From: Perkinsus olseni
Taxonomy: Eukaryota
Assembly (NCBI GenBank): GCA_013115125.1
Contig: JABANN010000025.1
Coordinates: forward strand, 62,001-121,664
Reading direction: 5' to 3'
DNA: 59,664 bases
Shown piece after piece: positions 9,085 to 11,743 of this stretch (its first letter is position 1; every line of letters starts with the position of its first letter). Below the pieces are notes generated by a model. It ran no database searches. It was not told the origin of the DNA and saw nothing but the letters and a program-made list of their open reading frames with translations. A program made the position numbers and the translations under genes.

Positions 9085-11743
9085 ATGCTCAGCACAGAAG
9101 CCCCCGAGCCCGAGCTGGCCGTCCGCAACTTGGTACTCTACAGTTCTACGGCTGCTGAAAGTAGGGTCCTCACCGCTGCCAGGTCCTGTCCGTCTGTGAT
9201 CTCAAGCAGCATGGCGACACGCCCACGGCTCGAGCGGCGGCCCGGGCTGCTACTCTGGGCACTAGGTGAGACCCTACGCCGGACTGGAGGAGACGGTGGA
9301 GGTTTGCTTCTTCCCTTCAGAATGTACGTCTTCGGTGGGGCTGATGATCGGCGAAGCTTCGGCAATGACGGCGAAGTCAGTGGGCTTCACTGCGCATGGC
9401 TCTGTGGTTGTTATCGAGTGTCTAGGTGCATCTGTTGGAGATCGAGCAGATGAAGTGGTCGAGGCTGCAAGGCACAGGCGACCTACCCGCGGCCCGATTC
9501 GGTCATACTTTTAATGTAGGGAAAAGTGTACCTCGCGGGGGTCGAACCTGCGCTTTTTCTAGGCGATATCTGACACGAACCTCGTGCTCTTTGGTGGCCT
9601 CTGCACCACCGACGGCTCAACATCCCACCCAGAATTTCTCGGCCCCAGTGCGCCTGCCTGGACTCACGGTGCCGCTGAGGCCTCCTCTGATCTCTATGTT
9701 TTCAATACGAGGTGAGACGAAGCCAACAGCCCCTGGATGGTGGCCGTGCATCCCTCCGCTCTCAGGACGCTAGTGTGGTCCCGCCCCACCCTCACCAACA
9801 ATCTCGAGTACCCCTCAGGACGCTACTTGCATGCCAGCGCGGTGGTAGGGATCGACCGCCTCTCCACTCCTCTTTTAACTCGGTCTCAGGTTGACGAGGC
9901 CCTGGTAATCTACGGTGGCTTGGATGGCCAAGGTCGAGCGAATGCGGAAGTGTGGGTCCTCAACCTCTCCTCATGGCAATGGCAGAGGGTAGGCAGAGCC
10001 TTCGTCGTCCACAGCTGAGAATGCCTCGTCAGGTGTCACCGTCCATCGCCCTCCCGCCGGCGTTTGGTCACGCGATGGCTGTCTACGGTGGGAGCGTGTA
10101 TTGCTTTGGCGGTAACTATGGCGACGAGGAAGAGGACATTAGCGAACTCTATAGGATGACAGTCAAGACTGGTGATACTATCGAGGTAGATGCTGAGGTC
10201 CCGAGTTCAACCCAAGCATGCTGCATTTTTCAGGTATCAATTTGCGAGACCAACAATTCAACTGCACCCTGTCAGCGTAGATTTCACAGCATGGACATGA
10301 TCGCCGGCAGGTCGGTATCCTTCCCCTCCCCTTCTCACCGCACCTTCCCCTCCGCAGGCTCTACGTCCTAGCCGGCGCCTCCTCACCCTCATCAACGCGT
10401 TTTGCAGACCTCTACGTGTAAGTGCAGCTGCCGCAGCACCTCCCGAGGGCGTCGTACCAGCGTCGCCACAGTTACGATACGACTACGAGTCGGTGGTCGC
10501 GGCCACTGTATGACGGGGCGCCGATCAATCTCCGCTCACACTGCACTACCGTCCTCCACGACAAGCTTCTGGTTTTCGGTGGCATCAGGTGGGTGAGGGC
10601 TTATCCCACAGCAGCCGCACTAGGCTTCTTCCGACCGACTGTTGATTCGGTTTGGTGACGCTTGGCAGGGACAAGTCTGGCTCCGATGAGGTTCGGATTT
10701 CCAAGAAGCTTTTCTTCCTCAACGTACTGGAAATTAAGGAAGGAGCGGTACGGCAAAACGATACTCATATTTATGGTTGGTTATTTTCCATCCTCAGACG
10801 GAGGGAGACTTCAAGTTCAAGTTGGTATCAGTCGGGGACTCCGGCGTGGGTAAATCTTGCCTCCTCACCCGTTTCGTCAACGACGTCTACTCTGACTTCC
10901 ACGTCTCAACCATCGGCGTGGACTTCGTAAGCTCTCCTTCGCCGTGCCTTCCCCTCACCATCCCCGTGTGCTCAGAAAACCGTGGTGACGATGGTGAAGG
11001 GAAGACTTGTGAAACTGCAGCTGGTAGGGAGGGCCGGGGCCTCGCCGCCGGAGTCCTCCCCCCGAGTGTTGGTCATTGTTTCAGTGGGATACCGCGGGGC
11101 AGGAACGCTTCTCTGTGGTCACAGGCAATTACTACCGCAATGCCGACGGCTTCGTGCTAGTGTACGACGCTACGAGCAGGGTAAGGTGAAGGGGCTACAG
11201 ATTTTCCTGCAGGATTCGTGCTTCCTTCCAGACTTCCTTTGACCATGTTGACCAGTGGCTGTCTCAAATCGAACAGCATCACGATCTTGGCCCCAACACT
11301 ATCAAAATACTCGTTGGTGAGCTCCTTGCCGACCATTGCGGCTTCGGGCTGCCTTCAGTTCTCCGCATCCGTCAGGAAACAAGCACGATTTATCGTCAGA
11401 AGTGGTAGTCACCGCGTCCGAAGGCGAAAAGAAGGCTCAGCAGATCGGAGCATTTTTCGTGGCTGCTTCGGCCAAGACGGCAAGTAACGTGGACTTGGCG
11501 TTCCTAACCGGTACGTGTTTGACCGTCGTGTTGCAATTAAGCTGACTTATTCAGGGGCCCAGAAGCTGGTCGAAATACGTCGGGAGCAGCAACAAGCCCA
11601 GCAACAGGTAGGGCTCATCACCTCCGGTCATTGTGGGTATCTGCTTCCTTTTGCAGCGTAATACCGTCCGGCGCCTTCAACTCGAAAGCCAGGAGTCCAC
11701 GACCTCGGCCAACTTCTGTACTCAATCGTGCGCTTCACGATGA
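9085..11743 (+). CDS. Kelch-repeat beta-propeller fused to a Rab1-like small GTPase (multi-exon)
   Basis: About six Kelch blades (MYVFGG, ARFGHT..LVLFGG, RYLHAS..VIYGG, FGHAM..YCFGG, RRFHS..YVLAG, RSHCT..LVFGG). These splice in frame through intron 10748-10797 to a Rab domain: [36 protein letters not shown]. Ends [13 protein letters not shown] at 11741-11743. Confidence 0.88.

Follow-up and report, generated by a model that had tools for sequence, protein, structure and literature searches.

The window, the whole stretch of DNA that was analyzed, comprises 59,664 nucleotides of contig JABANN010000025.1 of Perkinsus olseni, and all positions given below refer to it. Based on the reading frames and the splicing of the window, positions 9085-11743 of the plus strand hold a single gene made up of 19 exons and 18 introns (Table 1). 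All of the introns are of the GT..AG type and have lengths of 44-80 nt, and the spliced coding sequence of 1722 nt encodes a protein of 573 amino acids without an internal stop. The protein consists, in order, of a Kelch propeller (approximately residues 17-360), a linker of approximately 10 residues, a Rab1-like G domain (approximately residues 368-535), and a tail of approximately 35 residues. On the minus strand, the region 8539-12012 contains no stop-free frame of at least 90 amino acids and no sign of an antisense gene.

Table 1. Features of the Kelch-Rab gene (window coordinates)
Feature	Position	Strand	Content and evidence
Mature mRNA on genome	~9059..11779	+	~26 nt 5'UTR, CDS, ~36 nt 3'UTR; ends from contigs, not mapped read ends
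Exon 1	9085..9132	+	Start codon ATG (9085-9087), conserved N-terminal strand (..VRNL..); removal of intron 1 deduced from contig record coordinates
Exon 2	9183..9265	+	RNA contig joint 9263>9319 (cut +2)
Exon 3	9321..9375	+	Blade 1, MYVFGG; gene model, RNA contigs
Exon 4	9426..9515	+	Kelch; PF24681 E 2.4e-4; RNA contigs
Exon 5	9563..9711	+	Kelch blade 2; Kelch_4 E 2.5e-4; RNA contigs
Exon 6	9766..9844	+	80 contig letters only between pieces 9563-9709 and 9889-9987
Intron 6	9845-9889	+	45 nt, in frame and stop-free, yet spliced out (deduced from contig record coordinates)
Exon 7	9890..9988	+	Kelch blade 3; Kelch_3 29.4 bits; RNA contigs
Exon 8	10033..10185	+	Kelch blade 4; Pfam match
Intron 8	10186-10233	+	48 nt, in frame, yet spliced out; contig joint 10183>10232 (cut +2)
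Exon 9	10234..10310	+	Blade 5, with Perkinsus-specific 4-residue insert; gene model, RNA contigs, orthologue alignment
Exon 10	10358..10417	+	Kelch blade 5; gene model, RNA contigs
Exon 11	10472..10588	+	Kelch blade 6; PF24681 E 4.3e-5; RNA contigs
Exon 12	10669..10747	+	Last propeller strand, nearly invariant in family; RNA contigs
Intron 12	10748..10797	+	50 nt, GT..AG, phase 0, Kelch/Rab joint; skipped by one contig in each of 4 runs
Exon 13	10798..10926	+	Linker, P-loop GDSGVGKS (G1, 10834-10857), switch I; PF00071 40.9 bits
Exon 14	10976..11023	+	Rab strands beta2-beta3; gene model, RNA contigs
Exon 15	11085..11180	+	WDTAGQE (G3 DTAGQ, 11088-11102), switch II; PF00071 42.2 bits
Exon 16	11232..11316	+	Gene model, RNA contigs
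Exon 17	11376..11510	+	NKHD (G4, 11378-11389), SAK (G5, 11468-11476); PF00071 31.8 bits
Exon 18	11555..11607	+	End of C-terminal helix, Gln-rich start of hypervariable tail; gene model, RNA contigs
Exon 19	11657..11743	+	Tail end CTQSCASR (11717-11740), stop codon TGA (11741-11743); joint 11604>11654 (cut +3) in 3 of 4 runs

RNA evidence for one Kelch-Rab transcript

Expression of the locus was probed using contigs from four public runs belonging to four studies, of which run X6 is recorded as RNA-Seq and the other three are RNA by guess. All four runs contain intron-free contigs that span approximately 9059 to 11779 and are spliced across the joint between the Kelch and Rab halves. At this joint, the end of the propeller (...LEIKEGA) is connected to the linker of the Rab half, and one contig per run crosses it (10746>10797, cut +1), skipping the intron with no other letters and with 81 letters on the shorter side. 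Fifteen contig joints are listed, all of which are equal to predicted introns; the removal of the remaining three (introns 1, 6, and 7) is deduced from the coordinates of the contig records and not from listed joints. The X2 contig (1782 nt, 9059 to 11777) consists of the 5'UTR, the 1722-nt coding sequence, and the 3'UTR, and X1 contigs extend to 9059 and 11779. The contigs show the splicing of exon 12 to exon 13, and continuity over the whole length comes from assembly rather than from single molecules. As contigs drop rare variants, minor Rab-only or Kelch-only isoforms may exist.

The initial annotation proposed that a phase 0 splice between 10747 and 10798 links Kelch to Rab, that the two are fused in frame within one gene, and that no in-frame ATG lies ahead of the P-loop. 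The first two proposals are borne out by the 573-residue reading frame and by the contigs that cross the joint in all four runs, and the third by the reading frame of the Rab half, which is open only from 10738 and lacks a Met upstream of the P-loop. The region 9085-11743 is therefore confirmed to encode one in-frame Kelch-Rab protein and not two genes.

A contig from run X1 has a loose end before 9059 that consists of adapter followed by CA, which together with the AG at 9059-9060 of the window reads CAAG. These are the final four letters of both Perkinsus spliced leaders (PMC3101222). Four letters adjoining an adapter are too few for a claim of trans-splicing at 9060/9061.

The Kelch propeller and the Rab G domain

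The N-terminal part of the protein was initially annotated as a six-bladed Kelch propeller, and repeats, Pfam matches, and AlphaFold models of orthologues agree with this assignment. The window protein contains six Gly-Gly-type repeats, and Pfam Kelch families match exon pieces 4-11 (five of the six propeller exon pieces scanned); in the P. chesapeaki orthologue, PF24681 scores 236 bits against a cut-off of 50. The folds modelled are those of a P. olseni fragment that is 97.8% identical to the window protein and of a full-length orthologue that is 54% identical, not that of the window protein itself, and AlphaFold predicts six four-stranded blades in both. The model of the fragment (407 aa) has a pLDDT of 80.7 and a pTM of 0.78, with the propeller blocks mostly above 87, while the full-length model has a pLDDT of 87.2 and a pTM of 0.84. 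The last strand of the propeller passes into the G domain after approximately 10 residues.

The closest folds to the propeller are those of the LZTR1 Kelch domain (Z 40.4, rmsd 2.4, 306 aa), KLHDC3 (Z 38.5), and KLHDC2 (Z 38.2), and the alignments with the LZTR1/KLHDC folds cover approximately 290-306 residues at an rmsd of 2.1-2.8 and 24-26% identity. LZTR1, KLHDC2, KLHDC3, and KLHDC10 contain six-bladed Kelch propellers that recognize proteins or peptides, and the modelled Perkinsus propeller appears to share their fold. In contrast to the LZTR1 propeller, which binds Ras-family GTPases in trans, the Perkinsus propeller is covalently fused to a GTPase. Furthermore, the LZTR1/KLHDC proteins have a ligase-docking element, whereas Kelch-Rab is without a BTB-BACK or an elongin/cullin box; no BTB, BACK, BC-box, or other ligase-docking Pfam family was found in the orthologues (E <= 0.001). 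RABEPK (p40), a Kelch-repeat effector of Rab9, is similar in concept, as a Kelch propeller acts there together with a Rab, but it is a separate polypeptide, while the propeller and Rab of Kelch-Rab reside in one chain.

The motifs G1-G5, which had been described as intact, can all be read directly from the window, as can the switch-I Thr in STIGVDF. In this sequence, all motifs for nucleotide binding and hydrolysis are intact, including the catalytic Gln. The three exon pieces matched by PF00071 (Ras) all score above the curated cut-off of 21.6 bits, and the P. chesapeaki orthologue scores 176 bits with this family and 104 bits with PF08477 (Roc). The protein does not group with the Roco (Roc-COR) proteins, as no COR family is found in the orthologues and only approximately 35 residues follow the G domain.

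The best sequence relatives of the G domain among solved structures are Rab1a, Rab1A/B, and Ypt1, which fill all 21 of the top 21 rows, with best scores of 170-176 bits. Rab26, Rab8, Rab10, and Sec4 score 148-152 bits, and the margin to the next Rab subfamilies is approximately 13-20 bits. The Rab1-like affinity proposed at the outset is thus upheld as a score ranking against solved structures, as distinct from a Rab-wide tree, and the modelled G domain matches Rab1a with a TM of 0.93 in a fold comparison. RabF motifs are Rab-specific sequence motifs. In the alignment, the RabF-type stretches IGVDF, KLQ(L/I)W, YYR, and (L/I)VYD agree with those of Rab1a (2rhd), while RabF3 reads RFSVVT as compared with RFRTIT.

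The Rab1/Ypt1 proteins, which include the alveolate Rab1A paralogue (2rhd is the Cryptosporidium Rab1a), have G1-G5, IGVDF, and VYD motifs identical or near-identical to those found here. In contrast to the 573-residue Perkinsus protein with its N-terminal propeller, they are single-domain proteins of approximately 200 amino acids. Additional distinctions are found in switch II, in an HH(D/E)xGP insert that precedes NKxD in the Kelch-Rab family but not in Rab1, and in the tail, which is CC in Rab1 and C-x3-C-x3 in the Perkinsus protein. The divergence from Rab1 at switch II had been noticed initially, and comparison with RTITSSYYRGAHG of the Rab1a chain 2rhd substantiates it: six of the 13 positions differ, and the Kelch-Rab switch II is family-specific. 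Because switch II and the adjacent residues are unlike those of Rab1, the effectors and regulators of Rab1 need not apply.

Distribution and conservation of the Kelch-Rab family

The window protein shares 97.8% identity with the P. olseni fragment, 83.2% with the P. chesapeaki protein, and 80.9% with that of P. marinus. Kelch and Ras domains occur together in 116 of the best 120 database relatives, several of which are complete transcript ORFs, and named carriers include P. marinus, P. chesapeaki, Vitrella, Chromera, Noctiluca, Amoebophrya, gregarines, Cardiosporidium, Toxoplasma, Neospora, and Eimeria. A single uninterrupted match to the entire profile is found in at least 23 of the 150 representatives listed at 50% identity. 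The orthologue P0006 aligns end to end with P0129 at 36% identity (E 3e-123), and the end-to-end Kelch-Rab architecture is also found in a more distant clade. Two queries of the ESM Atlas returned one and the same cluster of 109 members, in which Haptophyta is the commonest phylum among the 30 members with a known phylum; that the distant clade is haptophyte is only a lead. The family also includes a clade of members with approximately 500 amino acids. Plasmodium, piroplasms, Cryptosporidium, and ciliates are not named among the length-windowed matches listed, from which no claim of absence is made.

In an alignment of 68 sequences, no variation is seen in G1, the switch-I Thr, or DTAGQERF, conservation reaches 90% or more in NKxD, SAK, and the KLFFL junction strand, and the family-specific switch II residues are nearly invariant. 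Within the family, the junction strand and the linker rank with the best conserved regions. A family tree built only by a quick method, from orthologues or a script-built model, broadly mirrors the organismal groups and is in keeping with vertical descent; its deep branches (support 87) are drawn open and are not relied on. Judged by sequence, the Perkinsus gene is the orthologous member of a conserved fusion family with representatives in perkinsids, syndinians, dinoflagellates, chromerids, gregarines, Cardiosporidium, and coccidia.

The database orthologues bear automatic names only, and several of the gene models are faulty. They include PMAR012543 of P. marinus, FOZ62_004665 (partial) of P. 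olseni, and FOL47_002505 of P. chesapeaki, with 44-98% identity across the set; the Toxoplasma gondii orthologue (771 aa) is named 'Ras family protein', and the Vitrella and Chromera entries are uncharacterised proteins. The initial annotation had made novelty hinge on the architecture not being widespread, and in sequence databases it is widespread. Full-text searching of part of PMC, with some 1.7 million of its articles as well as subscription journals outside the search, found no paper describing a Kelch-Rab fusion. In term searches, 'kelch' did not occur in a Toxoplasma Rab overexpression screen (PMC3591302), and only unrelated mentions were found in PMC7951837 and PMC10105704.

The description of the protein as a 'large Rab' fits a single 573-residue chain with a C-terminal Rab domain. 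The mammalian large Rabs are Rab44, Rab45/RASEF, and Rab46/CRACR2A (reviewed in PMC8303950), in which, as in Kelch-Rab, a large N-terminal module precedes a C-terminal Rab domain; the tail, lipidated in the mammalian proteins, is putatively so in Kelch-Rab. The module differs, as it is composed of EF-hands and a coiled coil in Rab44/45/46 (PMC8303950) and of a six-bladed propeller in Kelch-Rab; neither P0006 nor the Kelch-Rab part of the P. chesapeaki model P0003 yielded a match to an EF-hand or coiled-coil family (E <= 0.001). Kelch-Rab and the mammalian large Rabs belong to different lineages and presumably arose independently. In our reading, the fusion is a conserved, uncharacterised 'large Rab', the function of which we infer.

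Possible roles of a Rab with a built-in propeller

Membrane identity is set by Rabs, nearly all of which are single-domain proteins that act via separate effectors. The locus is one 19-exon gene whose product belongs to the conserved Kelch-Rab family, and the explanation as a whole, in which this product works as a 'large Rab', is considered likely. In the proposed mechanism, the cysteines of the tail would be lipidated, most likely geranylgeranylated via the Rab pathway, and would serve as a membrane anchor. The G domain would switch between GDP and GTP under the control of a GEF and a GAP, while the short linker would keep the covalently attached propeller near the G domain. The propeller, with a fold like that of substrate receptors, would provide a built-in protein-binding surface, and consequently the switch could recruit or present a cargo or partner with no need for a distinct effector. 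A function for the propeller as a built-in cargo/effector module is plausible by analogy with its nearest folds, which are protein- and degron-binding propellers, and a placement in the early secretory pathway, suggested by the likeness to Rab1, is only a lead.

It has also been considered that the propeller does not handle cargo but functions mainly as an intramolecular regulator, docking onto its own G domain and gating nucleotide exchange or effector access. The top fold match, the LZTR1 Kelch domain, has crystal entries with KRAS, MRAS, and RIT1 together with GDP. Additionally, the linker is very short, the two-domain pTM of 0.84 suggests a defined mutual orientation in the model, and the near-invariance of switch II would be consistent with such docking. 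However, KLHDC2, KLHDC3, and KLHDC10 match at nearly equal Z, so the likeness to LZTR1 does not single out GTPase binding, and regulation as the main role of the propeller is considered unlikely. Such regulation is compatible with the large Rab explanation. A bolder proposal, drawn by analogy, is that Kelch-Rab could be an ancient self-contained Rab and effector module, overlooked by apicomplexan Rab inventories, in which the propeller of the GDP state would dock on its own switch II as LZTR1 does on RAS-GDP, and would be freed by GTP to bind a partner on a compartment specific to alveolates; as a whole, this proposal is given a decidedly low probability.

The tail bears on a second possibility, namely that, rather than being a prenylated membrane Rab, the protein is a soluble or S-acylated GTPase with a Rab-like core that associates with the cytoskeleton or cilium. 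As initially annotated, the tail is C-x3-CASR and not CC or CxC: the window protein ends in CTQSCASR ahead of the stop codon (together 11717-11743), with two Cys in a C-x3-C-x3 arrangement. Across the family, 60 of 67 members have a di-Cys (CC, CxC, or CxxC) among their last 25 residues. The di-Cys often precedes a Gly-rich segment with a terminal Arg or Lys, and the last Cys is 0-21 residues from the C-terminus. The variable position of the di-Cys, the Gly-rich endings, and the absence of a di-Cys from the final 25 residues of seven members, some of them perhaps model errors, would fit a GTPase that is not prenylated, as would the occurrence of Kelch propellers belonging to the same Pfam family in axonemal DRC7 and dynein-associated chains. 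On the other hand, the Cys column is conserved in at least 90% of members, the last Cys is 3 residues from the end in the window protein and at most 4 residues from the end in 26 of 60 members, and the core is that of a typical Rab by score, which together make a non-prenylated protein improbable. The earlier suggestion of a CaaX-type lipidation is weakened by the prevalence of the Rab-style di-Cys, and the Perkinsus tail looks like a variant of this feature and not a CaaX box. Prenylation by RabGGTase is uncertain because the spacing is not that of a canonical Rab motif and the last Cys varies in position.

A role of the propeller as degron or substrate receptor for a cullin-RING ligase, with the Rab domain functioning in membrane targeting, is very unlikely. 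The top fold matches are exactly such receptors (compare KLHDC2, KLHDC3, KLHDC10, and LZTR1), but likeness of fold alone does not show function, the orthologues are without the ligase-docking families described above, and the last blade runs directly into the G domain. Finally, although Perkinsus trans-splices a 21/22-nt leader (PMC3101222) and merged models do occur in the genus, as in P0003, in which an upstream coiled-coil gene is merged with the Kelch-Rab gene, the reading of Kelch and Rab as two genes joined by an artefact of prediction or assembly, or split by spliced-leader trans-splicing at the 10797 acceptor, is extremely improbable given the cis-spliced contigs of all four runs, the Met-free start of the Rab frame, the presence of both domains in complete transcript ORFs of relatives, the conservation of the junction strand and linker, and, as weak evidence because contigs drop rare forms, the lack of a reported loose contig end at 10797.

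The large Rab explanation describes a Rab1-like switch that is permanently joined to a protein-recognition propeller in lineages from perkinsids and dinoflagellates to Toxoplasma. Its broad conservation, with invariant catalytic residues, suggests an old, selectively maintained part of the myzozoan repertoire and not an oddity of Perkinsus. The transcript-supported gene model corrects three faulty Perkinsus models. As tractable relatives carry the fusion, Kelch-Rab may prove to be a further component of membrane trafficking in these parasites and algae, and the docking of the propeller onto its own switch, if true, would mean that a Rab switch can be wired in a novel manner.

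Gene model and transcript of the Kelch-Rab gene

The exon chain of the Kelch-Rab gene was pieced together by hand from the three forward-frame translations of window 8500-12500. The resulting model has 19 exons and 18 introns of 44-80 nt, all bounded by GT..AG, and its spliced coding sequence of 1722 nt encodes a stop-free protein of 573 residues; the P-loop, DTAGQ, NKHD and SAK motifs, as well as the C-terminal CTQSCASR, were located in the window and their coordinates verified. Exon assembly arrived at the phase-0 Kelch/Rab splice of the initial annotation, intron 12, which connects ...LEIKEGA to the Rab part. 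The Rab frame opens only ten nucleotides before this intron and lacks a Met upstream of the P-loop, in agreement with the earlier remark that no in-frame ATG precedes it. Two introns, in blades 3 and 4, are stop-free and divisible by three, so that their removal is undecidable from the genomic sequence alone; their retention would add 15 and 16 residues, respectively. Both are absent from the RNA contigs.

Coordinates of features in and around the Kelch-Rab gene (window positions)
Feature	Position	Strand	Detail
Upstream neighbour	~5529-8718	+	stop TAG 8716-8718
Start of RNA contigs	9059		right after TAG, at genomic AG (9056-9061)
Kelch-Rab gene	9085-11743	+	ATG 9085, TGA 11741-11743
Intron, blade 3	9845-9889		45 nt, in frame
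Intron, blade 4	10186-10233		48 nt, in frame
Exon 9	10234-10310		blade 5
Rab reading frame	open from 10738		
Kelch/Rab joint in contigs	10746>10797		skips 50, cut +1
Intron 12	10748-10797		50 nt, phase 0

Transcription of the gene has been probed using public sequencing runs. A word search indicated that 24 runs contain a fraction of ~0.14-0.39 of the words sampled from 9000-11900, close to the value expected of intron-free copies. Contigs were compared for four runs from four studies, of which X6 is recorded as metatranscriptomic RNA-Seq and X1, X2 and X7 are RNA by guessed label only. In all four, contigs match the window at 99% or better, without extra letters, and skip the model introns. 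Fifteen splice joints are listed, all GT..AG at the model coordinates after the stated cut offsets, with three further joints undisplayed. The Kelch/Rab joint, for which the initial annotation had proposed a check of junction reads at 10747/10798, is crossed by one contig in each of the four runs, with a shorter flank of 81 letters. The contig record coordinates imply that introns 6 and 7 are also spliced out, since 80 record letters lie between pieces 9563-9709 and 9889-9987, while pieces 9889-9987 and 10032-10183 abut. The X2 contig (1782 nt) leaves 74 letters for exon 1 and leader, indicating that intron 1 is removed and that the contig starts at 9059. These contigs demonstrate cis-splicing junction by junction and whole-length continuity by assembly only, rare isoforms and true ends lying beyond them. 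Kelch-Rab is one gene with one spliced mRNA.

The loose end of the X1 contig upstream of its start consists of adapter plus 'CA'. PMC3101222 gives ...GGCTCAAG as the common 3' end of PmaSL1 and PmaSL2, the spliced leaders of Perkinsus, and 'CA' followed by the genomic AG gives CAAG, the final four letters of both. This is a hint only that a spliced-leader acceptor may lie at 9059-9060, too thin to support a claim.

The product of the upstream neighbour is a long coiled-coil polypeptide whose C-terminus carries a hydrophobic anchor (...FARVLLLLYVVALHVWVLLILQ...). Its P. chesapeaki homologue matches Golgin_A5 (golgin-84) at 24.1 bits, below the cut-off of 31.7; by sequence, the neighbour looks like a tail-anchored golgin adjoining a Rab1-like gene. 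When compared with window 8377-9132, the P. chesapeaki protein FOL47_002505 merges this golgin-like gene with Kelch-Rab. It is probably an annotation chimera, because a stop closes the upstream frame in the window and the Kelch-Rab contigs start only at ~9059. The P. marinus protein PMAR012543 (585 aa) differs from the transcript-supported model in lacking most of blade 5, in carrying 8 additional residues at the Kelch/Rab junction and in a Cys-poor C-terminus that resembles intron read-through, probably three prediction errors.

Spread and conservation of the fusion

A search with a 92-aa read-through piece returned three longer proteins (E <= 0.01) among 70 candidates: FOZ62_004665 (P. olseni, partial, 407 aa), a 196-aa fragment, and FOL47_002505 (P. 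chesapeaki, 1495 aa). The spliced window model shares 97.8% identity with the P. olseni fragment; the value falls to 83.2% for FOL47_002505, over its C-terminal 572 aligned residues, and to 80.9% for PMAR012543. These identities place the window in Perkinsus, in P. olseni or a very near relative. Searching with the P. olseni fragment recovered 2023 proteins (E <= 0.001) from 7673 candidates. In the best 120 of these, the Pfam column lists Kelch families together with PF00071 for 116 and Ras-type families only for the remaining four. Named among the matches listed are P. marinus, Vitrella, Chromera, Noctiluca, Lankesteria and Polyplicarium, as well as two Amoebophrya strains and Cardiosporidium with two paralogues. 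Many of the relatives listed are transcriptome ORFs flagged complete, indicating that they too make a single mRNA. When a profile of 68 members was run against 1.84 billion representatives, the 150 best matches included at least 23 that cover the full profile in one stretch, the others being Kelch-only or Ras-only. The rarity suggested by the initial annotation is not upheld. One full-profile match is a Toxoplasma gondii 'Ras family protein' (771 aa), which as a query returned 32 proteins (E <= 1e-20) and added Neospora, Besnoitia, Cyclospora, Eimeria stiedai and a partial Cystoisospora sequence.

P0129, which belongs to a more distant group, and a dinoflagellate-type member can be aligned over their full lengths (36% identity, E 3e-123), and since this alignment spans both domains and the junction, the fusion is homologous and not convergent. 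P0129 and P0077, from different groups, share one 109-member ESM Atlas cluster; its label 'commonest Haptophyta', with the phylum known for 30 of the 109 members, is only a lead.

A quick tree combined the window model with 49 chosen database members (50 rows in total, all other members omitted). The three Perkinsus sequences cluster with SH-aLRT support of 100, apicomplexans and chromerids group at 95, and Perkinsus, Amoebophrya, dinoflagellates and two further clades group at 87, drawn open; the distant group falls outside. These relationships fit vertical descent within Myzozoa. One clade comprises P0065, P0076, P0077, P0090 and P0093, and another P0072, P0074, P0079 and P0091. Both fall on the Perkinsus/dinoflagellate side, have proteins of 480-560 aa from genomic contigs of up to ~60 kb, and end in a canonical CCx tail; proteins of the first open with the blade-1 motif MKW.

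The P-loop, switch-I Thr and WDTAGQERF do not vary across the 68-sequence alignment, and conservation reaches at least 90% in NKxD, in SAK, in switch II with its family-specific sequence VTGNYYR, and in the final propeller strand together with the junction (S.KLFFL..L). The propeller, the G domain and their junction are under strong purifying selection. In exon 9, the Perkinsus proteins have a 4-residue blade-5 insert and two extra cysteines compared with all other aligned members.

The C-terminal tail was also compared across the family. With partial P0001 dropped, 60 of 67 members have C-x(0-3)-C in their last 25 residues; at least one of the other seven, PMAR012543, is a faulty model. The last Cys lies 0-21 residues from the C-terminus (four or fewer in 26 of the 60), and the cysteines often precede a Gly-rich stretch with a terminal Arg or Lys. 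These tails argue for Rab-type di-Cys lipidation and against the CaaX box that the initial annotation had considered, and the variable Cys distance leaves room for S-acylation or processing. Many dinoflagellate-type tails read K-C-x-C or K-C-C, then 3-15 mostly Gly residues, and end in Arg or Lys. A di-Cys so far from the C-terminus is unusual for Rabs and may point to processing, or to lipidation by another route, in these members.

Predicted fold and place among multi-domain Rabs

Kelch Pfam families match five of the six propeller exon pieces scanned, and PF00071 exceeds its cut-off of 21.6 bits on three of four Rab exon pieces (40.9, 42.2 and 31.8 bits). Full-length orthologues score 236 and 222 bits for PF24681 and 176 and 177 bits for PF00071, and the Pfam scan found no further domain types in their Kelch-Rab part. 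In the model of the full-length orthologue P0006 (pLDDT 87.2, pTM 0.84), which shares 54% identity with the window protein, residues 14-361 form six four-stranded blades; after a short linker, residues 370-545 adopt a Rab fold, and the tail is disordered. The P. olseni fragment model repeats the six blades with high confidence, bearing out the six-bladed propeller read initially from sequence; its G domain is modelled poorly, as expected from truncation.

Foldseek and VIA-align place the LZTR1 Kelch domain closest to the modelled propeller (Z 40.4, rmsd 2.4, 306 aligned), followed by KLHDC3 (Z 38.5) and KLHDC2 (Z ~38.2), with KEAP1-type propellers near 29-30. The modelled G domain superimposes on Rab1a (TM 0.93, 45% identity), and its top sequence matches among solved structures are Cryptosporidium Rab1a (2rhd), human Rab1A/B and Ypt1, which Rab26, Rab8, Rab10, Sec4 and Rab2 trail by 13-20 bits. 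Kelch-Rab is like Rab1 in score ranking and unlike it in size and switch II.

The protein combines a propeller with a complete Rab1-like switch and conserved tail cysteines, and may function as a lipid-anchored Rab with a built-in partner-binding module. Because the nearest folds of the propeller are substrate receptors, the simplest guess would be that its top face binds a protein or a peptide. Alternatively, and compatibly with this, the propeller may dock intramolecularly on its own G domain, an idea prompted by the matched LZTR1 entries, which are complexes with KRAS, MRAS and RIT1 in the GDP state, by the shortness of the linker and by the high pTM.

Kelch-Rab has the intact nucleotide-binding motifs and the PF00071 match of a Rab but not a canonical tail. 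It falls outside the mammalian large Rabs, the LZTR1/KLHDC ligase receptors and the Roco proteins, as the Pfam scan of the orthologues showed none of the additional domains that define these groups. Mammalian large Rabs (Rab44/45/46; PMC8303950) follow the same design logic but carry EF-hands and coiled coils instead of a propeller. Kelch-Rab sequences are already in databases under automatic names only. Full-text searches, which covered the main text of part of the PMC articles, found no description of a Kelch-Rab, and a term search of the Toxoplasma Rab screen PMC3591302 did not return 'kelch'. Kelch-Rab is a variant of the multi-domain Rab that is real, conserved and uncharacterised.
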